Shown here in pieces: positions 8,487 through 64,000 of a DNA stretch of 64,000 nt. Every line of letters starts with the position of its first letter. Within the stretch, counting starts at the first letter, position 1. The notes beneath the pieces were generated by a model, which ran no database searches, had not been told where the DNA came from, and saw only the letters and a program-made list of their open reading frames with translations. A program made the translations under genes and the position numbers. Where the stretch lies: assembly GCA_963422395.1 (NCBI GenBank), contig OY729431.1, positions 44,449-108,448 of the forward strand. Direction: 5' to 3'. Origin of the DNA: Vicinamibacteria bacterium (GTDB lineage: Bacteria > Acidobacteriota > Vicinamibacteria > Marinacidobacterales > Marinacidobacteraceae).

Positions 8487-9605
8487 ATGCCCGCAGCCGC
8501 GAAACCAGGGGCACTCCCCGAGGTCCGCCGGGACTCGATCCGCCGGGCCGAAGTTCGCGTGCCCACGCCCGACCTCGACGGCGACCTGCGATTCCTGGTG
8601 GACACCCTCGGTTTTCGGCTCGAGCGCATCTGGCCCGCCGACGATCCCGCGTTCTGCTCGCTTACCGGCTACGGGGCGGGAATCCGCTTGGAGCGGAGCA
8701 CCGGCGCCGCGGCGGCGGAAATCACTCTCCATACCGAGGATCCGGCACGGTTCGCCGGCGGCGAGCAGATGCTCGTTACCCCCGGCGGTCTCCGGATCAC
8801 GGTAGCGGCAGCAACCCCGCAGGCCGCTATTCCGGAAACCGTCCACGAACTCGTGGTCCGTCGGCTGGCCGAACAGGAGTCCTGGGGCGTCGGCCGCGCG
8901 GGGATGCGCTACCGGGACCTGATCCCCGGCCGGCTGGGAGGCGCCATCATCGCTTCGCACATCCGGATCGCTGACGAGGGGCCGGTGGACGACCTGGTCC
9001 ACTACCACACGGTCGGCTTCCAGCTCATCTTCTGCCACCGCGGCTGGGTTCGGCTGGTCTACGAGGATCAGGGCCCGCCCTTCGTGCTGGAGGCCGGGGA
9101 CTGCGTGATCCAGCCCCCGGAGATTCGCCACCGGGTGCTCGCCTCCTCCGCCGGGATGGAGGTGATCGAAGTCGGCGTTCCCGCCGAGCACCTCACCACG
9201 ATAGACCACGCCATGGAGTTGCCGACTCCTCATTTCCGCCCCGAGCGCGCGTTCCAGGGCACCAGGTTCCTGCGGCATCGAGAGCGGGGGGCGCGTTGGG
9301 AGCCCTGGCGCATCCCCGGGTTCGAGATGCGCGACACCGGGGTCGCTCGGGCCACACGGGGGATCGCGGGAGTTCAGGTTGCTCGAAGGGTCCCCGGGCG
9401 GGCGGTTCCAGCCAGCAGCCACGATCGGGACATCCTGTTCGGTTTCGTGCGCAGGGGGACGATGTACTTGGAGGCCGAGGACCACCCCCGGCGGACACTC
9501 GCCGCCGGCGACACCTTCGTCCTGCCGCCGCACCTTCCGGTCGCTCTCGGAAGCCCCTCCGACGACCTCGAGATCCTCGAAGTGACGCTGCCGGCCGGCT
9601 GCTAG
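8487..9605 (+). CDS. bicupin (double cupin-fold) protein
   Basis: Two cupin-like segments are present: HYHTVGFQLIFCHRGWVRLVYEDQG and DILFGFVRRGTMYLEAEDH...GDTFVLPPH. The competing minus-strand ORF is low-complexity. Confidence 0.5.
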   Translation: MPAAAKPGALPEVRRDSIRRAEVRVPTPDLDGDLRFLVDTLGFRLERIWPADDPAFCSLTGYGAGIRLERSTGAAAAEITLHTEDPARFAGGEQMLVTPGGLRITVAAATPQAAIPETVHELVVRRLAEQESWGVGRAGMRYRDLIPGRLGGAIIASHIRIADEGPVDDLVHYHTVGFQLIFCHRGWVRLVYEDQGPPFVLEAGDCVIQPPEIRHRVLASSAGMEVIEVGVPAEHLTTIDHAMELPTPHFRPERAFQGTRFLRHRERGARWEPWRIPGFEMRDTGVARATRGIAGVQVARRVPGRAVPASSHDRDILFGFVRRGTMYLEAEDHPRRTLAAGDTFVLPPHLPVALGSPSDDLEILEVTLPAGC

Positions 9606-9640
9606 CTGTGACCTTGCGGTAGGTTGTTCAGGGGGAAATG

Positions 9641-9697
9641 AACACTACATATAGTGGTCGATCGCGTCTGGAATCGTTCTGCAGCGCAGGCTGCTAG
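9641..9697 (-). mobile_element. MITE-A family element (57-bp copy, reverse orientation; may extend to 9605 with a degenerate left end)
   Basis: Reverse complement tCTAGCAGCCTGCGCTGCAGAACGATTCCAGACGCGATCGACCACTATATGTAGTGT is ~93% identical to 11402-11457. It sits immediately after the TAG stop (9603-9605) of the cupin gene. Confidence 0.6.
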
Positions 9698-11401: not shown

Positions 11402-11519
11402 CTAGCAACCTGCGCCGCAGAACGATTCCAGACGCGATCGACCACTATATGTGATGTTCATCGACGAATCGATCTACTACATATAGTGGTCATTCTTTTC
11501 TGCGGCGCAGACTCCTAGA
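11402..11519 (+). mobile_element. MITE-A family element, full palindromic copy (~116 bp) with ~16-bp terminal inverted repeats and flanking TA
   Basis: TA|GCAACCTGCGCCGCAGAACGATTCCAGACGCGATCGACCACTATATGT...ACATATAGTGGTCATTCTTTTCTGCGGCGCAGACTCC|TA. Left and right ends are inverted repeats (GCAACCTGCGCCGCAG / CTGCGGCGCAGACTCC). Spurious ORFs through the copies translate to the recurring peptide CAAERFQTRST. Confidence 0.65.
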
Positions 11520-14532: not shown

Positions 14533-16776
14533 TTGCGGAGCGGAGTGCCCATCGGAATATCGGTCGTGCTGGCGGCGGTCGGACTGGCAGCGGTCGGACT
14601 GGCAGCGGGCTGGCTGGCGCCGGTGGAATCTGCGCCGGGCGGGCTCGCGCAGCGGCAGTCCCTCGGCCCGCTCGAACCGGTTCCGGCCGAAGGGGCTCCC
14701 GGTCTTTTTCGCCTGGCGATGTACCCCACCCCGGATCTCGCCCCGGCGACAGGAGCGGCCACCCTGCTCTGGGACCCCAGCCCCTTCGGCGTCTCGGTGA
14801 CCCGCGACGGAAACCAGCGCTACCGCATCGCTCTCGACATCACCGGGCTTCCTGAACCGGAGTCGCTCGGCGACTACCGGACTTATGTCGCCTGGGCGAC
14901 CACCCCGGTGTTCCAGCCGACGGTGCGCCTCGGCGAAGTCGGTAACGGATCGTTTCCGAATCTCGGAGTGGTGTCTTTCGACAAGTTCGTCCTCCTGGTG
15001 AGCGCCGAACCCTCCGGTGCGGTGGAAACGCGCACCGGCCGGCTGGTCCTGCGCGGCGCCTCCCCTTCGACCCGCATCCTTCCCGACAACCACCTGATGG
15101 TTCCGGTGAGCGGGAGCGGCGAGGCAGGAGCCGGCTCCGCGGCCCCGGACCACGCGGCGATGAGCCACGGGGCGGGGGAGGACGGGGAAGCCTCCGGGTG
15201 GCCGCATCCGCCGATGCTCGAGGAGACCCCGATGGTCCCCGGGCTCGGCCACCTGCGCCCGGAACCCCTGCCGTTCCTGCCGCGGGCGCCCGCCGACACC
15301 GCACTCCCCGATGCGGAGCCCTCGCAGATCGTCCGTCTGCGCGACGGGCAGACGCTCGATCTGATCGCCGGCCGGGTGAGGCGCCGCATCCACGGTCGAG
15401 ACTATGTGATGTACGGCTTCAACGGCCAGTACCCCGGACCGATGGTGCATGTGGATCGGGACGCCACCCTCTTCGTCGACTTCGAAAATCGGACCTCGTG
15501 GCCGACGGCGATCCACTGGCACGGAGTGCGGCTCGACAACGCCTTCGACGGCGTGCCCCATGTCACCCAGGATCCGGTGCCGCCGGGGGGCCGCTTCCAG
15601 TACCGGATCCACTTCCCGGACGCCGGCCTCTACTGGTATCACCCCCATCACCGCGAGGAGGTCCAGCAGGATCTCGGTCTCTACGGGAACCTGCTGGTCG
15701 AGGCTCCGGCGAACGAGTGGTACGCCCCGGTCCACCGCGAAGAGATCCTGATGCTCGACGATCTCCTGATCGCCGACGATGGCGGCCTTTTCCCCTGGGG
15801 AAGCAGCCGGGCGACCCATGCCCTCATGGGCCGGTTCGGCAACCTGCTGTTGGTCAACGGAGAGCCGGGGTACGAACTGGCTCTCGACCGGGGGGAAGTC
15901 GTGCGCTTCTTCCTCACGAATGTCTCGAACACCCGCACCTTCAACCTGGGGTTCGGAAAACCGGGCACCCACCGGATCAAGGTCGTCGGGTCCGACCTCT
16001 CCAAGTACGAGCGGGAGACCTGGGTGGATTCGGTCACGCTCGCCCCTGCCGAGCGTTACATCGTCGAGGTTCGCTACGAACAGTCCGGGGAGCACGCGCT
16101 GGAAAACCGCGTGCGCCCGCTGGAGCACGCCTTCGGCAGCTACTTCTCGAGGGTGAGCGCGCTGGGGACGGTTCGGGTCGGCGAGCGGGAGGCCGATCCG
16201 GCCGGCGCGCCCGGCTACGACTCACTGCGGGAGAACGCATCGGTGGTGGAGGAAGTGGACCGTTACCGGGCTCGTTTCGACGCGCCCCCGGACCGGGAAC
16301 TCGTTCTCAGCATGGAGGTTTCCGGCCTCGATCCGGCGATCATGCAGCGGATGCGCGCCGACCGGGTGTTCTTTCCCCCGGTGGAGTGGGCGCCGACCAT
16401 GCCCATGATGAATTCGGTCGCAACTCCAGACGAAGTGCGATGGATCGTGCGGGAACCGACGACCGGCCGAGAGAACATGGACATCGCCTGGCGTTTCCGG
16501 GTCGGCGATCTCGTCCACATCCGCATCGCGAACGACGCCGGCGCCCTCCACGCCATGCAGCACCCCTTCCACATCCACGGCCAGCGGTTCCTCGTGGTCC
16601 GCCGCAACGGCGCTCTCGTCGAGAACCAGGTGTTCAAGGACACCGTGCTGATCCCGGCCGGAGAAACCGTGGACATCCTGCTCGAAGTCACGAACCCCGG
16701 CAAGTGGATGGCCCATTGCCATATCGCCGAGCACCTCGAAGCCGGAATGCGCTTCGTCTTCGAAGTCGACCCCTGA
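14533..16776 (+). CDS. multicopper oxidase (laccase/CueO-like, extended form)
   Basis: Copper-site motifs HWHGVRL, WYHPHH and HCHIAEHLEAGM. The N-terminal TM/signal is VPIGISVVLAAVGLAAVGLAAGWLA. The start is a TTG at 14533 preceded by AGGAG at 14521; alternatives are ATG 14446 or GTG 14545. Confidence 0.75.
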   Translation: MRSGVPIGISVVLAAVGLAAVGLAAGWLAPVESAPGGLAQRQSLGPLEPVPAEGAPGLFRLAMYPTPDLAPATGAATLLWDPSPFGVSVTRDGNQRYRIALDITGLPEPESLGDYRTYVAWATTPVFQPTVRLGEVGNGSFPNLGVVSFDKFVLLVSAEPSGAVETRTGRLVLRGASPSTRILPDNHLMVPVSGSGEAGAGSAAPDHAAMSHGAGEDGEASGWPHPPMLEETPMVPGLGHLRPEPLPFLPRAPADTALPDAEPSQIVRLRDGQTLDLIAGRVRRRIHGRDYVMYGFNGQYPGPMVHVDRDATLFVDFENRTSWPTAIHWHGVRLDNAFDGVPHVTQDPVPPGGRFQYRIHFPDAGLYWYHPHHREEVQQDLGLYGNLLVEAPANEWYAPVHREEILMLDDLLIADDGGLFPWGSSRATHALMGRFGNLLLVNGEPGYELALDRGEVVRFFLTNVSNTRTFNLGFGKPGTHRIKVVGSDLSKYERETWVDSVTLAPAERYIVEVRYEQSGEHALENRVRPLEHAFGSYFSRVSALGTVRVGEREADPAGAPGYDSLRENASVVEEVDRYRARFDAPPDRELVLSMEVSGLDPAIMQRMRADRVFFPPVEWAPTMPMMNSVATPDEVRWIVREPTTGRENMDIAWRFRVGDLVHIRIANDAGALHAMQHPFHIHGQRFLVVRRNGALVENQVFKDTVLIPAGETVDILLEVTNPGKWMAHCHIAEHLEAGMRFVFEVDP

Positions 16777-27647: not shown

Positions 27648-28029
27648 GGGGGCGCACTGGGTTCGACGAAGGTACATGAGGCTGCGACTGCATGTCGGGG
27701 GTCCACCTCTCGTAAACGGTGGAAACAAAACACACACGCCAACACTGAACTGGCTCTGGCTGCTTAAGCCACGTCCTTCCTGACCTCGCCTGCCGGGCGG
27801 GAAAGGGCGTCGACTAGGTGGGCTTTGCCGGCGGTTCTCCCGGATCGTCGGTGAGCCTCAGGGATAGTTTCCGCAGCGCGACTCGCCGGGTCGATGCGGT
27901 GCGGAAGCGAACCGGGAAGGGCACCCTCGGGTGCGGATTCCCGAAACGACCTGGATATGCATGTAGAAGTCGCCGCGGAAGGCTTTCGGACGCGGGTTCG
28001 ATTCCCGCCGCCTCCACCATATTTTCCGC
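27648..28029 (+). ncRNA. ssrA: tmRNA (ssrA), tag peptide ANTELALAA
   Basis: The 5' GGGGGCGCACTGGGTTCGACG pairs with the 3' ...GGACGCGGGTTCGATTCCCGCCGCCTCCACCA, giving a T-arm and an acceptor stem with a G-U at position 3. The internal reading frame GCC AAC ACT GAA CTG GCT CTG GCT GCT TAA encodes the tag. Confidence 0.8.
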
Positions 28030-34251: not shown

Positions 34252-34695
34252 GTGACCCCGGAACTCATCGCTATCCTCGCGGTAGGGGTCGGGCTCGCGG
34301 GCCTGCTCATCAGCGGCCAGCGCTCGGCCGCAGGAGACCGCCAGGCCATCCGAGAGGAGCTTCGCTCCGGTTTCCAGGCCGCCGCAGGAGACCGCCAGGC
34401 CATCCGAGAGGAGCTTCGCTCCGGTTTCCAGGCCGCCGCAGGAGACCGCCAGGCCATCCGAGAGGAGCTTCGCTCCGATTTCCAGGCCGCCGCAGGAGAC
34501 CGCCAGGCCATCCGAGAGGAGCTTCGCTCCGGTTTCCAGGCCGCCGCCGAAGACCGCCAGGCCATCCGGCAGGAACTCGCCGCGATTCAGGCCGATCTCC
34601 ACACTCTGGGGGAACGCATCGCCCGGCTCGAAGGGGCTTTCCCGTTCCTCGCCGCCCGGTCGGCTCCGCCGGACAGTCAGCAGCGCCCCACCTGA
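34252..34695 (+). CDS. small membrane-anchored coiled-coil protein built from 18-aa tandem repeats (AAGDRQAIREELRSGFQA)
   Basis: GTG start after GGGGGA. An N-terminal TM helix (LIAILAVGVGLAGLLI) is followed by 5 tandem 18-aa units. Confidence 0.45.
   Translation: MTPELIAILAVGVGLAGLLISGQRSAAGDRQAIREELRSGFQAAAGDRQAIREELRSGFQAAAGDRQAIREELRSDFQAAAGDRQAIREELRSGFQAAAEDRQAIRQELAAIQADLHTLGERIARLEGAFPFLAARSAPPDSQQRPT
34327..34596 (+). repeat. 54-bp tandem repeat x5 (4 near-perfect plus 1 degenerate) inside the 34252..34695 CDS
   Basis: Unit GCCGCAGGAGACCGCCAGGCCATCCGAGAGGAGCTTCGCTCCGGTTTCCAGGCC repeats head-to-tail at 34327, 34381, 34435 and 34489, with a diverged copy at 34543. Confidence 0.85.
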
Positions 34696-54608: not shown

Positions 54609-56962
<2,354 letters not shown>

Positions 56963-56987
56963 GAAGCGGGTCTATTCCTGTCTATTC

Positions 56988-57174
56988 CCTAGCAGCCTGT
57001 GGATGAAGTGGCGCGAGCCCAAAGAGCGGTGAGGCGCCCGGCTGGCAAGGCGCGTGAGGGAGGAATACCGAGTGTATTTCGACCGAAACGCAACGATGAG
57101 CGCCGTGAAACGGCGCGGTTCAGCCGGGATGCATCGCCGCTCGACGGCCGTGTGACTTTGTCCACAGGCTGCTA
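56988..57174 (+). mobile_element. MITE-B family element, copy 1 (~187 bp, 15-bp terminal inverted repeats CTAGCAGCCTGTGGA/TCCACAGGCTGCTAG, flanking TA)
   Basis: Near-identical copies are at 62607-62786 (reverse) and 63531-63729. It sits in the atpA-atpG intergenic space, and its terminal CTAG supplies the atpA TAG stop. Confidence 0.7.
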
Positions 57175-58692
57175 GGACGCGCGGGCGCGGAAGACCTCGC
57201 GCTCGAACTCGGAGATCGCCTCCCGGAGCGCTGCGGTGAGCGAATCGTCGAGTTTCTTCTCTTCGCGGATCCGCAGGAGCGTGCCCGGATGGCGGGCCGC
57301 GAGAAATTCGTGGAGTTCCGCCTCGAAGCCGCGGCAATCGCGCGGCGCGAGATCATCCAGGAATCCCTCGTTCGCGGCGAAGATGGCCGCCACCTGTTTC
57401 TCCACTGGCAGCGGCTGGTACTGGTCCTGTTTCAACACTTCGGTGAGGCGCTCTCCCTTCGCCAGTTGCGCCTGGGTGGCCTTGTCGAGATCCGAGCCGA
57501 ACTGGGCGAATGCCGCCATCTCCCGGTACTGAGCCAGCTGGAGGCGCATCGTGCCGGCCACTTGCCGCATGGCCCGGATCTGCGCCGAACCCCCGACTCG
57601 GCTCACCGAGTTGCCCACATTGATCGCCGGTCGGATTCCGGCGTTGAACAAGTCGCTTTCGAGATAGATCTGCCCGTCGGTGATCGAGATGACATTCGTG
57701 GGCACATAGGCCGAAAGGTCGCCGGCCTGGGTCTCGATGAAGGGGAAGGCGGTGAGAGAGCCGCCGCCCCGTTCGTCGGAAAGCTTGGACGCCCGCTCGA
57801 GCAGCCGCGAGTGGAGATAGAAGACATCCCCAGGGTAGGCCTCGCGCCCGGGGGGCCGCCGAAGCAGGAGCGAGATCTCCCGATAGGCGGCCGCGTGTTT
57901 CGAGAGGTCGTCGTAGATGCACAGCGCGTGGCCGCCGCGGTCCATGAAGTACTCGCCCATGGCGCAGCCGGAGTAGGGAGCGAGGTACTGGAGAGGTGCT
58001 GGCTCCGAAGCGGAGGCCGAGACCACGATCGTGTGGTCGAGAGCGCCATGGTCCTCGAGGGTGCGGACCACCTGCGCCACCGTGGAGAGCTTTTGTCCCA
58101 CGGCGACATAGACCGCGACCACGCCGGTGTCCCGCTGGTTGATGATCGCGTCCACGGCAATCGCCGTCTTGCCGGTCTGGCGGTCGCCGATGATGAGTTC
58201 ACGCTGCCCCCTGCCGATGGGGATCATGGCGTCCACCGCCTTCACCCCGGTCTGGAGCGGCTCCTTGACCGGCTGCCGGGCCACGATGCCCGGGGCGATC
58301 CGTTCCACCGGGTTCGCCTCGGAGGTCTCGATGGGGCCCTTGCCGTCGAGGGGCCGCCCGAGGGCGTCCACCACCCGGCCCTTCATCGCCTCGCCCACCG
58401 GCACCTGGAGGATCCGATGGGTGCGCCGCGCCGTGTCTCCCTCGCGGATACGGGCGACTTCGCCGAAGAGCACGAGTCCCACGGCGCTCTCTTCGAGGTT
58501 CAGCGCCAGCCCGAAGACCTCGTGGGGCAACTCCACGAGCTCCCCGTACATGACGCCTTCGAGGCCGTGCACTCGGGCGATCCCGTCTCCCGAAGAGACC
58601 ACGGTGCCGATCTCGGCGACATCCACCCCCGGCTGGTGGCCGGCGATCTGTTCCCGCAGCAAAGCGGCGATTTCATCGGCTCGAATGGTCAT
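57172..58692 (-). CDS. atpA: F1 ATP synthase subunit alpha
   Basis: P-loop GDRQTGKTA and the full alpha-subunit sequence. The ATG at 58692 gives [16 protein letters not shown]. Confidence 0.85.
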
Positions 58693-58723
58693 GGACTTAC
58701 CTGTAATTCGTTGACTTTGCTGT

Positions 58724-59275
58724 TTATTGAGGGACAAACCCGTATCGGCCAGAAAATCGGCGCAACTCGCCGCTGACGCTCGCGTCGTAGATCCGGTTCC
58801 CGGTGCGCACGAGCAAGCCGCCCAGCAGCGAAGGATCTCTGCGGAAGCGAAGCCGCGGCTTTCCCCCGAGCATCTCCGCGAGGGCGCCGCGGACTGCCAT
58901 GCGGCTTCGTTCGTCGAGTGGACGGGCGGAGACGACTTCCGCCTCGACGATTCCGCGGTGGTTGTCGAGGGCTTCGCGGAAGGCAGCGGCGGTCTGCGGC
59001 AGCTCGCGGCCGCGCTCGTGCTCCACCATCACCGCAGCGAAGCGGCCCAGCCTCGACCCCGGGGCCAGCCGGTCTCCGACTGCATTCGCCAGCCGGGCCC
59101 GGCGGGCGCGCGGAATCGCCGGCGAGACCAAGGCGGCGGCGAGGTCCGGGGAGCCCTGAAGCAGCTCCGCCAGCTGGTCGAGCGCCTCTGCCAGAACTTC
59201 CGATTCGTCCCCGGAGGAGACTGCGGTTTCGAGCAGCACCCGGGCGTAGTGCCGAGAGACTTCGCTCGACCGCAC
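58724..59275 (-). CDS. atpH: F1 ATP synthase subunit delta (OSCP)
   Basis: [15 protein letters not shown]...[20 protein letters not shown]. Confidence 0.75.
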
Positions 59276-59291
59276 GAAGACGCCTCCAGGT

Positions 59292-59846
59292 TCAGCTCGA
59301 TCGGATCGCGGCGATCCCGGCGTTCAGGAGCCGCTCGTGATCTTCGTCGGACAGAGAGTTCTCGACGCGCGAGCGTGCGAGCCGGGCCGCAAGCCGCGCA
59401 GCGTCGGCGGCCAGCCGGCGTTCGGCTCGGCGCACTTCCTGCTGGAGTTCCGCTTCGGCCGCCGCGGTGATCTTCCGGGCCTGCGTCTCGGCAGCGGCCA
59501 CGATGCGGCGGCCTTCTTCTGCAGCGGACTCGGCGATCCGCCGACGGGCCGCTTCCACTTCGTCGTCAAGCGATGCCGTGCGGCTCCTGGCCAGCTCCCG
59601 GGCACGCGCCGCCTCTTCCCGGTCGGCGCGGGCGTCGGCAAGCTGTTCCCGGATCTGCTGTGCCCGGGCCCCGAGCCAGGCGGCGAGCGGTTTCCGGAGC
59701 GCGAGAACCAGAATGGCGGCGAGGATCGTGAAATTGACGATCTTGGGAAGCTCGGATCCTCCGCCGGCCTCGGCAGCGCCCGCAAGCGTCGGCACCGCGA
59801 GGATCGATCCCCCGACGAGCGCCGAGCAGCCGAGCCGATGGATCAT
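59292..59846 (-). CDS. atpF: Fo ATP synthase subunit b
   Basis: N-terminal TM helix, then a long Ala/Arg/Glu coiled coil, located within the atp operon. Confidence 0.7.
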   Translation of the reverse strand: MIHRLGCSALVGGSILAVPTLAGAAEAGGGSELPKIVNFTILAAILVLALRKPLAAWLGARAQQIREQLADARADREEAARARELARSRTASLDDEVEAARRRIAESAAEEGRRIVAAAETQARKITAAAEAELQQEVRRAERRLAADAARLAARLARSRVENSLSDEDHERLLNAGIAAIRSS

Positions 59847-60271
59847 GAGGCGCGGCGCAATACCCGAGCAGCGAGTTCGGACGCGAGGCTCTCGGCGTCA
59901 GCTTCCAATTCGACAGCGGCGTGGGCGGATTCCTCGCGGAGCGAGCGCTTCCCTGCCTCGAGTGCTCTCGAAGCGCGTTCCCGGGATTCCGCCAGCGAAC
60001 GTTCGGCCCGCTCGCCGGCTTCCTGACGGACCCGGTCCATTTCCCGGTAACCGACCCGTCGGACTTCGGCGAGAGCTTCGGAAAGGCGAGCCTCGGTGCG
60101 GGCCGCTTCCGCCTCGGCGCCTTGCCGGCGCCGCCGGGCTTCGGCCCGATTTTCCTCCCGCGCCTCCATCGTGCGTGCGAGCGGCTCGAAAAATTGGGAT
60201 TTCAGCACCAGGACCAGCAGCACCACGAGCGCGGACACCACGAGCGCGGAGAGGTCGGGAATGATCGTCAC
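59843..60271 (-). CDS. Fo ATP synthase subunit b' (second b-type subunit)
   Basis: TM helix MTIIPDLSALVVSALVVLLVLVL plus a coiled coil. It overlaps the atpF start by 4 nt. Confidence 0.6.
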   Translation of the reverse strand: MTIIPDLSALVVSALVVLLVLVLKSQFFEPLARTMEAREENRAEARRRRQGAEAEAARTEARLSEALAEVRRVGYREMDRVRQEAGERAERSLAESRERASRALEAGKRSLREESAHAAVELEADAESLASELAARVLRRAS

Positions 60272-60486
60272 GAAACGAGCCGGGCAACAGGTCGGGCGGG
60301 GGGAAGGGGCCGCGCGTGGAGAAGAGGAGGAACGCCGGTCCGCAGACCGGTGCGCGGCTGCCTGAGGGGAGCCCCTGGAGGGTCCGCCACGGGCGTCGGA
60401 AGGCTATCACCGCACCCTGGGGTTGCCAAGAGTTACCCGGGAGTCCGGAAGAGCCTGGGGCGCAGTGCCGGTCGATTTCGGGCTGG

Positions 60487-60966
60487 CTATTCGCCGCCGC
60501 GGAGCGTCTGGTTTTGGGCAGGATTCGAGGGTTCGCCGACTGGCTCCACCCCGGATTCCACGACACCGGCAGGATTCGGCGCGGGAGGATTCGAGGCCTC
60601 TGGGCGGGAGCGCTGGTAGTCGGGGTGGATGTGGAACCGGGCGCCATCCGTATTGCTTTCGATTTCGAGTCGCAGGCTGGCTGCCTGAACGGTCACGCCG
60701 ACGATGACGCCGCCGGAGCGGATTTCGACCTCGTGGGCGTCTATCTTTCCCGAGACTCGTCCTCCATCTTCAACGACCACCCTCTCGGCGAAGATGCTTC
60801 CGTCGAAGGATCCGTCGGTCCCCACCGAGACCACCCCCTGCGAGTGGATCTCACCGGAGAAGTCGCCGTTCACGCTGAACGGGCCGGGGGCAGTGAGCCG
60901 ACCGGTGAGTCGCGATCCGGCGCCCACGAAACCGCTGTATGCCTCCTGCGAGACTTCTCTGGCCAT
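60487..60966 (-). CDS. bactofilin (CcmA/BacP-like cytoskeletal protein)
   Basis: Bactofilin beta-helical repeats GRLTAPGPFSVNGDFSGEIHSQGVVSVGTDGSFDGSIFAERVVVEDGGRVSGKIDAHEVEIRSGGVIVG, with a Pro-rich tail. Confidence 0.65.
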   Translation of the reverse strand: MAREVSQEAYSGFVGAGSRLTGRLTAPGPFSVNGDFSGEIHSQGVVSVGTDGSFDGSIFAERVVVEDGGRVSGKIDAHEVEIRSGGVIVGVTVQAASLRLEIESNTDGARFHIHPDYQRSRPEASNPPAPNPAGVVESGVEPVGEPSNPAQNQTLRGGE

Positions 60967-60968
60967 GA

Positions 60969-61814
60969 CTATTTCTCTCCTCTGGCGGTGAAGAGGACGA
61001 AAACGCGCTGCAGGTCGTCTTCGGAAAAGAACCGGATGTGCACCGAACCGCCCTTGCCGCGACGATGGATCTTCACCGGCAGCCCCACTCCCTGCTGCAT
61101 CCGCTCCTCCGCGTCGCGGCTGTTGGGGTCGAGAGTCTTTGGGGAGCTTCCACGAGCGGCCCCGCCGTCCTGAAGCGCGCGCACTCGCCGTTCCACTTCG
61201 CGCACCGACAGGTCCTGCCGCATGATCTCCCTTGCGAGACGGCGTTGATCGTCACGGGCGAGCCCGAGCAGCGCCCGGCCGGCAGCAGCCCGGAGGCGGC
61301 CGCTCTCGACGAACCCGCGCACTTCGGGATCCAGATCGAGCAGGCGAAGGGCGTTCGTGACCGCGGTACGGCTTCGCCCGACCTCGGCGGCGATTTCTTC
61401 GTGGGTCAGACCGGTCTCGTCGGCGAGGCGGCGGAAGGCGAGCGATTCCTCGATGGGATTCAGGTTCTCTCGTTGCAAGTTCTCGATGAGCGCCAGAAGT
61501 CCGAGATCGTCATCCGCCACCTCACGGACCACCACCGGCACCCGCTCAAGGCCTGCCTGCCTGGCAGCACGCCAGCGACGCTCACCGGCGATGATCTGGA
61601 AGCGCTCGGCGCGCTCCCGGATGACGATCGGCTCGATCAGCCCATGAGTTTCGATGGAGGCCGCCAATCCGGCGAGATTCTCGGGGGATATCTCCGATCG
61701 CGGCTGTTGCGGGTTGGGCTCCAATTGGTCCACCGGCAACTCTCGATACCCCGCAGCCGGCGCCGCTGCGGGCAGCAGGGCATCGAGGCCGCGCCCGAGT
61801 CTTCGGCGTTTCAT
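60969..61814 (-). CDS. parB: chromosome partitioning protein ParB
   Basis: ParB box GLIEPIVIR...IIAGERRWRAA and an HTH (LTHEEIAAEVGRSRTAVTNALRLL). Confidence 0.85.
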   Translation of the reverse strand: MKRRRLGRGLDALLPAAAPAAGYRELPVDQLEPNPQQPRSEISPENLAGLAASIETHGLIEPIVIRERAERFQIIAGERRWRAARQAGLERVPVVVREVADDDLGLLALIENLQRENLNPIEESLAFRRLADETGLTHEEIAAEVGRSRTAVTNALRLLDLDPEVRGFVESGRLRAAAGRALLGLARDDQRRLAREIMRQDLSVREVERRVRALQDGGAARGSSPKTLDPNSRDAEERMQQGVGLPVKIHRRGKGGSVHIRFFSEDDLQRVFVLFTARGEK

Positions 61815-62590
61815 CGGGAGAGCACTTCCCTCGCGAGTTTCGAATACGCAGCGACCGCTTTCGACCCTGGATCGTAGAGCTGGACAGGGAGTCCAAAGGA
61901 AGGAGCTTCAGCGAGACGAACGGATCGCGGCACTTCCGCCTCGAGCACTTGCCTGCCGAGTCCACGCCGGACTTCGGCGATGACTTGCCGGGACAGATTC
62001 ATCCGGCGGTCCACCATGGTGAAGAACACTCCGAACAACTGGAGGTCGGGATTCCAGGATTCCCCGATGCGCGCCACGGTATCCAGCAGCCGGGAAAGGC
62101 CCTGCATGGCGAAGAATTCGCACTGCATCGGCACCAGCACGGAATCGGCCGCCACCAGCGCGTTCACCGTCAACAGGCCGAGCGAGGGGGGGCAATCCAG
62201 CAGAACGAATTCCGTCGTCGCGGAGTCGGAGCGGGAGAAGGCGGCCAAGCTCTCCCGCAGACGGGAAGCCCGGCGCTTCGGGTCGCGAAACTCCGCGGCG
62301 AGTTCGAGATCGACACCGGCGAGGGAAGGATCCGAAGGACAGGCGCTCAAGTTCTCCACTCCCGTGGGAAGCACTGTCCGGGCGAGAGGCTCTCCGTCCA
62401 CGATCGCGTCATAGGTGCTGTAGCCGTCTTCGGCGATCCGGAGATCGAGGCTGGCGGTAAGGCTTCCCTGGGGATCGAGGTCCACCACCAGAGATCGTCG
62501 GCCCGCCTCGGCGAGCGCCGCGCCGAGGTTGACCGTGGTGGTGGTTTTCCCCACCCCACCTTTCTGATTGGCGACCGCCAGAACGCGCAT
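61811..62590 (-). CDS. parA: chromosome partitioning ATPase ParA (Soj)
   Basis: The ATG at 62590 gives MRVLAVANQKGGVGKTTTTVNLGAALA (deviant Walker A). The gene overlaps parB by 4 nt. Confidence 0.85.
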   Translation of the reverse strand: MRVLAVANQKGGVGKTTTTVNLGAALAEAGRRSLVVDLDPQGSLTASLDLRIAEDGYSTYDAIVDGEPLARTVLPTGVENLSACPSDPSLAGVDLELAAEFRDPKRRASRLRESLAAFSRSDSATTEFVLLDCPPSLGLLTVNALVAADSVLVPMQCEFFAMQGLSRLLDTVARIGESWNPDLQLFGVFFTMVDRRMNLSRQVIAEVRRGLGRQVLEAEVPRSVRLAEAPSFGLPVQLYDPGSKAVAAYSKLAREVLSR

Positions 62591-62606
62591 GACGACGGGT
62601 CGAAGG

Positions 62607-62850
62607 CTAGCAGCCTGTGGACGAAGTCGCACGGCCGTCGACCAGCGATGCATCACGGCGGAAACACTCCGCTCGGCGTTGTTGCGATTCGGTCGGAATA
62701 CTCCCGGTATGCCTCCCGAATCGCGCCTTGTCCGCCGCGCGCCTCGCCACTCTTTGGGCTCGCGCTACTTCATCCACAGACTGCTAGAAGCCACATGGAC
62801 GAAGTCACCCGGCCGTCGACCGGCGATGTTTCCCGTGAAACATCTTCCAT
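62607..62850 (-). mobile_element. MITE-B family element, copy 2 (reverse orientation, 62607-62786) plus an abutting partial half-copy (62787-62850)
   Basis: CTAGCAGCCTGTGGACGAAGTCGCACGGCCGTCGACCAGCGATGCATC...CTTCATCCACAGACTGCTAG. It lies 17 nt upstream of the parA start. A truncated repeat of the same end follows. Confidence 0.7.
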
Positions 62851-62863
62851 CGGCTTCTCCGTT

Positions 62864-63526
62864 TCACTGGGTTCGTCGGGGACAGCCGATCCATACGATG
62901 CCCCGCTCCACCGGGACCGATCGCTCTTCGTAGAGACCGGACGGGAGGTCGGCTCGCTCCCGGGCGGCCTGGCTGGTCGGCCAGATCACCCGCGCTTCGG
63001 GCCGAAGCGCCTGCGCCAGTCCCTTCCATTCCTGCTTGCGCAGACGCACTGCGCGCAGCGTGACCGCCGTCGCTTTCCGCATTCGATTCCACTCTTCCGG
63101 TTGGCTCAGGAAGTTCTTGAGGCGGCACCGGACGACACGCACCCGGTCGGTGATCCCCAGGTTTTCGATCGCGAGTTCGAGAAAGCCGACCGCCGTCCGT
63201 CGGGGTTCGAGCAGCGTCCACTCGCTGGCTCCGGAGACGACCGCCAGCGGCAACGCTGGCGTTCCTCCGCCGCTGCCCACATCCAGGTACGGGCCTCGCG
63301 GCGGGAGGAAGGCCCGGAGCGCCAAGGCCTCTTCGAAGTAACCGCGAACCAGAGCTTCGGAAGAAGCGAAGCCGGTAATTCCCGCTTCCCGCCATTCGAG
63401 CAGCAGCGCGAGGAGCCGGGCCAGGGAAGCTTGCGCCGCCTCTTCGACCGGCGGCACCGCACCGGCGAGTGCCGATTCCAGCGCGCTCAGCGCGCCCCCG
63501 CTCGAGGCAGGGTTCGGAGAGTCCAC
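62864..63526 (-). CDS. rsmG: 16S rRNA (guanine527-N7)-methyltransferase RsmG (GidB)
   Basis: YLDVGSGGGTPALPLA is the SAM motif, with the overall GidB sequence. GTG start. Confidence 0.8.
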   Translation of the reverse strand: MDSPNPASSGGALSALESALAGAVPPVEEAAQASLARLLALLLEWREAGITGFASSEALVRGYFEEALALRAFLPPRGPYLDVGSGGGTPALPLAVVSGASEWTLLEPRRTAVGFLELAIENLGITDRVRVVRCRLKNFLSQPEEWNRMRKATAVTLRAVRLRKQEWKGLAQALRPEARVIWPTSQAARERADLPSGLYEERSVPVERGIVWIGCPRRTQ

Positions 63527-63530
63527 GGAC

Positions 63531-63731
63531 TGCTAACAGCCTGTGGATGAAGTGGCGCGAGCCCAAAGAGTGGTGAGGCGCGCGGCGGACAAGGCGCGAT
63601 TCGGGAGGCATACCGGGAGTATTCCGACCGAATCGCAACAATGCCGAGCGAAGCGGTTCAGGCGGGGCCCCCACCGGGAGAACTGGGCATCGCCGACCTT
63701 TGGCCGGGTGACTTTGTCCACAGGCTGCTAA
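63531..63731 (+). mobile_element. MITE-B family element, copy 3 (~199 bp; left end variant CTAACAGCCTGTGGA), preceded by a solo TIR-like fragment TCCACGGACTGCTA
   Basis: It lies between the yidC stop and the rsmG start. The terminal CTA supplies the yidC stop codon, and the upstream TIR-like fragment overlaps the rsmG start region. Confidence 0.7.
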
Positions 63732-64000
63732 GCCCTGGTGGTCGGCGCTGCCCGCTTTCTCGATCGTTTCCCTTTCGCCGCCGGCATGAGCGCCTTCGCG
63801 GCCTCTTCCCGCCGGTTCATGATCCGAATCGTCACCGCCTGCTGCCCCATCGAGATCAGATTGTTGGCGAACCAGTAGAGCACGAGTCCCGAGGGTGCCC
63901 ACGCGAGGATCAGGGTGAAGACCACCGGCAGGAACATCATGATCTTCGCCTGGACGCCTTCCGCCTGGGTGGTGGTCATCTTCTGCATGACCAACTGGCT
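63728..64000 (-). CDS. yidC: membrane protein insertase YidC, C-terminal part (gene continues beyond the window end)
   Basis: ...FLPVVFTLILAWAPSGLVLYWFANNLISMGQQ is the conserved YidC C-terminal TM5/6 region, followed by a basic tail. The ORF is open at 64000. Confidence 0.6.
   Translation of the reverse strand, partial: SQLVMQKMTTTQAEGVQAKIMMFLPVVFTLILAWAPSGLVLYWFANNLISMGQQAVTIRIMNRREEAAKALMPAAKGKRSRKRAAPTTRA

Follow-up and report, generated by a model that had tools for sequence, protein, structure and literature searches.

MITE-B copies between conserved genes

The 64-kb stretch of DNA analysed here (the window) comes from contig OY729431.1 of a Vicinamibacteria bacterium. It carries the genes dnaA-rnpA-yidC-rsmG-parA-parB-bactofilin-atpFFHAGDC in this order, and three copies of a short repeated element with terminal inverted repeats (TIRs) lie within this region. 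We refer to the element as MITE-B, a miniature inverted-repeat transposable element (MITE). All of the genes that flank the copies are on the minus strand, and Pfam confirmed AtpA, AtpG, ParA, ParB, GidB/RsmG, and the C-terminus of YidC. The copies were located by repeat finding and alignment. A profile made from 32 foreign copies gave exactly three full matches in the window (E-values of 5e-55, 2e-35, and 3e-32) and one partial match beside copy 2. The features in this region are as follows.

56989-57175, plus strand: MITE-B copy 1, 187 bp including both CTAG tetramers, at the junction of the atpA stop and the atpG start
57172-57175, no strand assigned: right CTAG tetramer of copy 1, whose CTA is the TAG of minus-strand atpA; its left partner is at 56989-56992
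62607-62787, minus strand: MITE-B copy 2, 181 bp, with CTAG on both sides, upstream of parA
62784-62826, minus strand: MITE-B remnant, the right arm (~43 nt) of an older copy, which has the CTAG at 62784-62787 in common with copy 2 and is directly followed by parS
63522-63536, minus strand: TIR-like stretch outside copy 3, with the minus-strand sequence TTAG CAGTCC GTG GA, in which the predicted rsmG start codon (GTG) lies
63533-63731, plus strand: MITE-B copy 3, 199 bp, at the junction of the yidC stop and the rsmG start, with the flanks CTAA...CTAA

An earlier interpretation made from the letters alone (the sequence-only reading) had reported three copies, and all three were found within 1 nt of where it had placed them. 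It had also described an extra half-copy that extended to position 62850. A partial copy does adjoin copy 2, but it is the right-arm remnant that ends at 62826. The parS site that follows (TGTTTCCCGTGAAACA, 62827-62842) has one mismatch to the consensus, and 0 such sites are expected by chance. The identity among the copies had been put at >85%. This holds over ungapped columns, where the pairwise values are 86%, 87%, and 93%, but not once indels are counted, where they are 82%, 76%, and 81%. The inverted repeat has an 11-nt core (CAGCCTGTGGA) without mismatches in copies 1 and 3 and with one mismatch (CAGTCTG) in copy 2, and an imperfect similarity between the ends reaches ~24 nt. The 15-bp perfect TIRs that had been described, which include the CTAG, are present in copy 1 only, because copy 2 has the mismatch and the outer tetramers of copy 3 form a direct repeat, not an inverted one. 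Ten occurrences of the motif CTARCAGCCTG were counted in the window, compared to 0.75 expected. The only open reading frames (ORFs) in the MITE-B copies are element-spanning frames of 56-62 amino acids (aa), and no transposase gene lies inside the copies.

The element meets the neighbouring genes at or within a few nucleotides of their ends. The TAG stop codon of atpA (57174-57172, minus strand) sits within the right CTAG of copy 1, and the TAG stop codon of yidC (63730-63728) sits within the right CTAA of copy 3. In other words, the right-hand tetramer of the element supplies the stop codon of both genes, as had been noticed before. The GTG start of rsmG (63526) is 6 nt from the end of copy 3, and the ATG of parA (62590) is 16 nt from the end of copy 2. 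A public protein (P0001) has the same rsmG start as the one predicted in the window. The atp mRNA contains the reverse strand of copy 1.

MITE-B is a dispersed and mobile family

How did the element come to lie between these genes? A relative with a 4.19-Mb assembly (L105), whose RsmG is 57% identical to that of the window, has the same gene order as the window. Its junctions carry no element: yidC and rsmG overlap by 4 nt (GTGA), 30 nt separate rsmG from parA, and 6 nt separate atpA from atpG. Likewise, the atpA-atpG spacer is 6 nt and without an element in two further loci (L011 and L021), and MITE-B is absent at every window site that these three loci cover. Because the junctions are compact in syntenic relatives, all three window copies are insertions. 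The C-terminus of the window AtpA is ~14 residues shorter than in L105, L011, and L021, indicating that the end of the atpA gene was remodelled.

Two other observations concern the same junctions. The parS of the window lies 21 nt past the rsmG stop, and its L105 equivalent is located within rsmG itself, at the 3' end of the gene. Junctions in which 6 nt separate a stop codon from a GTG start, and which mimic the end of a MITE without a MITE, were seen in the window at 63522-63536 (TTAG CAGTCC GTG), in L105 at 16418-16429 (TAG CAGCCT GTG), and in a third locus (L082) near position 716 (TTAA CAGTCT GTG). These junctions may be remnants, preferred targets, or chance resemblances; a general search for solo TIR-like 'stop-N6-GTG' junctions gave results too noisy to evaluate.

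A scan of 185,579 species-representative genomes for a 21-nt end motif (CTARCAGCCTGTGGAYRAAGT) matched at least 104 stretches. The matches listed came from metagenome-assembled genomes (MAGs) labelled as Vicinamibacteria, Ca. Marinacidobacterium, other Acidobacteriota, Rhodothermales, and Planctomycetota. They contained 91 distinct short elements bounded by the core, 84 of which have internal sequence in common with copy 1. These 84 related elements come from Acidobacteriota loci in nearly all cases, and the canonical MITE-B body is 179 nt long. The elements of Rhodothermales and Planctomycetota have little in common beyond the ends. Evidence of mobility also came from four pairs of orthologous sites, of which one is filled and the other is empty (L057/L046, L021/L011, L047/L049, and L097/L005). 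The automated search for empty sites was swamped by nested repeats, and only these four clean pairs were usable. Furthermore, copy 1 reaches 91.6% identity with copies in genera for which the identity of the atp genes is only 75-83%, which points to horizontal spread, constraint, or both.

The partner transposase

Full-length insertion sequences (ISs) of 1.49-1.52 kb that have the ends of MITE-B (CAGCCTGTGGATAAAG) were found by tblastn within the fetched loci, and they encode a transposase with a DUF772 and a DDE_Tnp_1 domain. The autonomous partner that the sequence-only reading had supposed is thus present in other genomes, including that of the closest syntenic relative. The IS in the latter genome (L126, same genome as L105, with the gene order of the window) is 1485 bp long, is arranged as CTAA CAGCCTGTGGATAAAGTCG ... 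CTTTATCCACAGGCTG CTAA, and encodes a transposase of 477 aa. Its TIR (CAGCCTGTGGATAAAG) is perfect over 16 nt and matches the MITE-B consensus at 16 of 16 positions. Likewise, a Rhodothermales IS (L087) is 1523 bp long with the flanks CTAG/CTAG and the end CAGCCYGTGGRTAAAGT, and a Marinacidobacterium IS (L095) is 1516 bp long with matching ends. Further IS copies with matching ends were seen in partial views of two loci (L036 and L038). The IS that encodes the transposase P0124 is present as four identical copies in different contexts, all arranged as CTAG CAGCCCGTGGAA ... CCACGGTCTG CTAG. The IS that encodes P0142 has the same arrangement and is present as seven intact copies, with identical sequence in multiple copies. 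Every full-length element found with these ends (L087, L095, L126, the P0124 and P0142 copies, and an IS on the plasmid pLB1) encodes DUF772 together with DDE_Tnp_1(_6).

Both domains scored above the Pfam cut-offs (60 bits for DUF772 and 42 bits for DDE_Tnp_1), DDE_Tnp_1_6 was also present, and precomputed Pfam domains agreed for >100 transposase homologues. The transposase clade is large, with ~8000 homologues at E < 1e-30. The best NCBIfam model was IS1182, at 149-204 bits with a cut-off of 270, and the next was IS5_4, at 75-94 bits with a cut-off of 140. All scores are below the curated cut-offs, and the models therefore do not assign the transposases to either the strict IS1182 family or the strict IS5 family. 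The partner of MITE-B is an IS of the IS5/IS1182 superfamily that targets CTAG/YTAR. MITE-B itself is a true MITE: it is short, has TIRs and a flanking repeat, occurs as dispersed copies, and has an autonomous counterpart with matching TIRs.

Target site and duplication

The flanks of the elements follow the motif YTAR, and CTAG is far commoner than CTAA, TTAG, or TTAA. In 47 of the 91 elements, the left and right tetramers are identical, and the match never reaches the fifth nucleotide. Eight identical pairs at unrelated loci are not CTAG; they comprise CTAA five times (including copy 3), TTAA twice, and TTAG once, and both CTAA and TTAG are non-palindromic. The flanks CTAA/CTAA were also found at two ISs (L126 and the pLB1 IS). 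The identical non-CTAG pairs together with the two CTAA-flanked ISs favour a 4-bp duplication like that of IS5. Judging from the flanking sequences, the duplication would be 2-4 bp long and most often 4 bp. The sequence-only reading had described a duplication of TA. TA is indeed present in every flank, inside YTAR. The identical tetramers, including the CTAA/CTAA of copy 3, fit 4 bp better, but several cases fit a duplication of TA or TAG. The positions on either side of the TA are correlated between the two flanks, and it looks as if the G and C beside the element ends sometimes travel with the element.

Association with stop codons

The genome has a G+C content of ~68%, and CTAG is three-fold depleted in the window (21 sites were observed, and dinucleotide-preserving shuffles gave an expectation of 72). 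Eight of these sites flank a copy of MITE-B or of MITE-A, a second short element that is described below. CTAG followed by a TIR-like sequence was also seen at window positions 465 (CTAGCAGCCTCTCC) and 14341 (CTAGCAATCTGTGCC).

Coding frames next to the elements were judged by a test that used 80 open codons and the G+C content of the three codon positions (GC3 > GC1 > GC2, with GC3 of at least 0.75). The element ends exactly on the stop codon of the gene reading into it at 43 of 182 ends, and any other single distance accounts for two ends at most. Counted by element, 42 of the 91 family members directly adjoin the stop codon of a gene, since TAG or TAA lies within YTAR. Thus the bias suspected from atpA and yidC is family-wide. 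Among the CTAG tetramers of the same loci, 27% of the occupied ones are stop codons versus 20% of the free ones, and the value is 46% per element, each of which has two tetramers. The window has four CTAG-type stop codons, and a MITE is present at three of them. The orientation relative to the upstream gene shows a mild bias (28 versus 15). Active targeting of stop codons is not required, since the motif itself and the loss of gene-disrupting insertions can explain the enrichment.

Conserved fold of the element

The consensus of 32 canonical copies folds as a rod with two apical hairpins. It has 61 predicted pairs, and 99.2% of the cells are paired. Compensatory double changes occur at 19 of the 61 pairs. 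For example, pair 34-149 is found as AU, GC, CG, GU, and UG. The observed fold values were never reached in 500 shuffles, and slid controls showed ~35% pairing. The predicted folding energy of copy 1 is -122.5 kcal/mol on the plus strand (z = -12) and -96.3 kcal/mol on the minus strand (z = -9), which is the strand in the atp mRNA. For the consensus, the energies of the two strands are -98 versus -57 kcal/mol, a gap that rests on ~5-7 versus 3-4 wobble columns. Strand-specific selection had been considered because of this gap and was withdrawn, as the columns are so few.

No promoter- or terminator-like sites were found in the MITE-B copies. A search of Rfam 15 gave no match to the element at the gathering score in the window, none at E <= 1 for positions 56500-64000, and none at E <= 0.1 in eight loci. 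The sole Rfam match at the gathering score in the window is a transfer-messenger RNA (tmRNA) gene at 27648-28019 (RF00023, 158 bits).

The element together with one tetramer comprises 183 nt (61 codons), and 67 of the 84 copies have a length divisible by three. When read on the minus strand in phase with the flanking TAG, 83 of the 84 oriented elements contain no stop codon, and loss of the upstream stop would therefore add ~61 residues up to the duplicated stop. A coding role for the element is not proposed, because common descent and G+C content can explain the open frame.

A model for MITE-B insertion and its alternatives

We propose that MITE-B is a non-autonomous transposon with a body of 179 nt between two flanking tetramers. 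It would be moved in trans by a DDE transposase from the IS5/IS1182 superfamily that recognises TIRs of 16-24 nt (CAGCCTGTGGAYRAAGT). Integration would take place at YTAR tetramers, and the tetramer would be duplicated in part or as a whole. CTAG is scarce in a GC-rich genome and many of the remaining sites would be gene ends, so that surviving insertions would pile up on stop codons. The duplication would leave the upstream stop codon in place, and as a result the gene would not be destroyed. The copies at atpA/atpG, at yidC/rsmG, and upstream of parA would have originated as such insertions. Furthermore, every insertion would make two new YTAR sites on which later copies could land end-to-end, and copy 2 beside the remnant is an example. 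As no consensus promoter or terminator is present in it, the element is presumably transcribed along with the operon; within the mRNA it would fold into a very stable hairpin and may affect expression. We give this explanation as a whole, namely a MITE moved by an IS5/IS1182-type transposase into YTAR and settling on stop codons, a probability of roughly 0.85.

Several points weigh against this explanation. Two filled/empty pairs (TTAG to TTAG...CTAG and TCAG to TCAG...CTAG) show no clean 4-bp duplication, and one fresh copy of an otherwise identical IS is flanked by ATAG...CTAG. The mismatches between paired tetramers, 13 at the outer bases and 2 at the inner bases, also speak against a 4-bp duplication. 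MITE-B has only the terminal 16-17 nt in common with the ISs found, and it is therefore not a simple internal-deletion derivative of any of them. The transposase would have to act in trans in the window's own genome, and no such gene lies in the 64-kb window. The sequence-only reading had stated that the window holds no transposase at all; for the partner family this agrees with tblastn, which found no homologue in the window, and other transposase families were not screened exhaustively. The enrichment on stop codons is only ~2-fold relative to free CTAG, and the pile-up may reflect survival of harmless insertions instead of active targeting. Finally, the collections hold no close sister genome (the next best RsmG is 63% identical) and thus no exact empty sites for the three window insertions, and a metagenome scan with RsmG confirmed no relatives.

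What else could account for the element? One possibility is that the fold is selected as a single-stranded nucleic acid, making MITE-B a portable stop-codon hairpin that tunes essential operons, and that the 18-nt unit nested in it (see below) propagates independently as a counterpart of the small dispersed repeats of cyanobacteria. We consider this idea unlikely. A related alternative is a structured RNA or regulatory module retained by the host, such as an intercistronic mRNA stabiliser or a processing site that sets the AtpA:AtpG or RsmG:ParA ratios, for which mobility is the means of delivery. The compensatory changes keep complementarity over the whole element, far past the TIRs, and the predicted fold is very stable (z = -12 and -9). 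The identity of copy 1 to copies in other genera, which exceeds that of the atp genes, also fits a retained module. However, relatives lack the element at these junctions, it lies in both orientations relative to the upstream gene, and it has no Rfam match, promoter, or terminator. The strand asymmetry comes from few wobble columns, and arm-to-arm templated repair in a palindrome could also yield compensatory changes. We regard a host-retained module as improbable.

The origin suggested by the sequence-only reading was IS630/Tc1-mariner, in which case TA within CTAG would be duplicated, as it is by IS630 itself. TA is central in every flank, and the outer bases of the tetramers vary more than the inner ones. 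The TTAG to TTAG...CTAG pair and the fresh IS copy with ATAG...CTAG likewise fit a TA duplication by an element that ends in G...C. However, all autonomous elements with these TIRs encode DUF772 and DDE_Tnp_1, and no IS630 model was among the NCBIfam matches of the transposases of the TIR-bounded elements. Furthermore, a TA duplication could account for the CTAA...CTAA of five independent MITEs and two ISs only with mismatched termini (A...C) and a coincident flank base. These results argue against IS630/Tc1-mariner, which we regard as very improbable. An operon-specific leader or attenuator conserved in all relatives, with which the intergenic position of the copies agrees and nothing more, has a negligible chance of being correct, because the element is found at >100 dispersed places in unrelated contexts and in filled/empty pairs, and the junctions in L105, L011, and L021 are compact and element-free, as befits the mobile MITE first supposed.

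A nested 18-nt module and MITE-A

Two further kinds of repeat in the window are related to MITE-B by position or by their ends.

63669-63686, plus strand: nested 18-nt module (CCCCACCGGGAGAACTGG) inside copy 3
11402-11518, plus strand: MITE-A, 117 bp, with the terminal CTAGCARCCTG in common with MITE-B
9602-9697, inverted relative to the copy at 11402-11518: second copy of MITE-A, partly degenerate

Copy 3 is longer than the other copies because it contains the 18-nt module. Elsewhere the module occupies at least six recurrent positions in MITE-B, in both orientations overall and in a fixed orientation at each position. Its insertions give MITE-B size classes of 179, 197, 215, 233, 269, and 287 nt, and the cleanest site shows an insert of exactly 18 nt without a duplication. 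The module was seen in copy 3, in four named loci (L011, L023, L031, and L068), and in ~50 others. Copies with at most one mismatch number 215 in Marinacidobacterium and Vicinamibacteria loci, with 40 outside MITE-B, and none were seen in Rhodothermales or Planctomycetota loci. Outside MITE-B, the module is the core of ~45-nt units (GTGCCGG-module-GGCGTTCC), which sometimes form inverted doublets. A few ancient module insertions followed by recombination could explain the fixed orientation per site. Tandem arrays with a period of ~71 nt, made of a MITE-B right-arm fragment with the 18-nt unit, were seen at positions 1103-1402 of L068 and 6495-6653 of L023.

The MITE-A pair has 60-nt arms that are 93% complementary and brackets a single minus-strand gene, like a composite transposon. 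The outer CTAGs of the pair are the stop codons of the neighbouring genes. MITE-A is probably served by the same transposase family as MITE-B. A tandem repeat of another kind, with a period of 54 nt and ~6 units of up to 99% identity, is present at 34273-34596 of the window.

Comparison with known systems

IS5 inserts at YTAR with a 4-bp duplication and has the ends GGAAGG. The system described here resembles the IS5 group in its DDE transposase with a DDE_Tnp_1 domain, in insertion at YTAR (CTAG/CTAA), and in flanking tetramers that are usually identical. It differs in that the transposase is 414-480 aa long with an N-terminal DUF772 domain and has IS1182 as its best model, with no NCBIfam cut-off reached. 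Moreover, the ends start with CAGCC, and some insertions lack a clean 4-bp repeat. The IS5-family element found on pLB1 (AB244976) and on Sphingobium plasmids encodes a transposase that is 49% identical to P0124 and annotated 'IS5 family transposase'. Its ends (CAGGCCGTTGACGAAGTCGG) resemble the end of copy 2 (CAGCCTGTGGACGAAGTCGC), and its flanks are CTAA...CTAA. Unlike MITE-B, it is autonomous and resides on plasmids of Alphaproteobacteria, and the terminal sequence is only partly the same. The likeness to the IS1182 family, of which IS1272 is an example, consists of the best-scoring NCBIfam model and the same DUF772/DDE architecture. IS1272 is reported to insert into inverted-repeat targets without a target duplication (PMC5678879). 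In contrast, every copy of the ISs described here has fixed ends and is flanked by YTAR, and the scores are below the IS1182 cut-off of 270.

Correia elements of Neisseria, ERIC, and RUP-type MITEs are ~100-200 bp long, have TIRs, form long hairpins, occupy intergenic or intra-operon positions, and are co-transcribed. MITE-B is like them in size, TIRs, long hairpin, and intergenic or intra-operon position. It differs from them in host phylum, TIR sequence, and partner family. To our knowledge, neither near-exact placement on stop codons nor a nested 18-nt module is a feature of these families. No direct precedent turned up in literature searches on IS1182 and CTAG, MITEs positioned at stop codons, MITEs of sponge symbionts, and 'Marinacidobacterium'. 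MITE-B does not fit REP/REPIN sequences, which are palindromes of 20-40 nt or their doublets, lack a target duplication, and are associated with RAYT, because it has a 179-nt unit, TIRs, flanking repeats, and a DDE-type IS partner; no search was made for RAYT genes.

Small dispersed repeats (SDR) of cyanobacteria are very short units that nest in other repeats at varied positions and in both orientations without a flanking duplication. They are the nearest known precedent for the 18-nt module, and for the module only, as it is also a short nested unit found in both orientations without a flanking duplication. The module differs from SDR in phylum and sequence, and it has a fixed orientation at each of its MITE-B sites. 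We know of no mechanism for either SDR or the module. For SDR, PMC3116915 cites Elhai et al. 2008.

Implications for Acidobacteriota genomes

In a GC-rich genome, a scarce target motif with a stop codon in it can steer a transposon towards the ends of genes. The element thereby colonises essential, tightly coupled operons, such as atp and the yidC-rsmG-parAB cluster beside parS, without killing the host. The repeats also matter for the annotation of MAGs of uncultured Acidobacteriota, in which they create spurious ORFs, shift gene ends and starts, and probably break assemblies. Because the same terminal repeats are present on ISs in MAGs of three phyla, the family is a possible marker of horizontal exchange.

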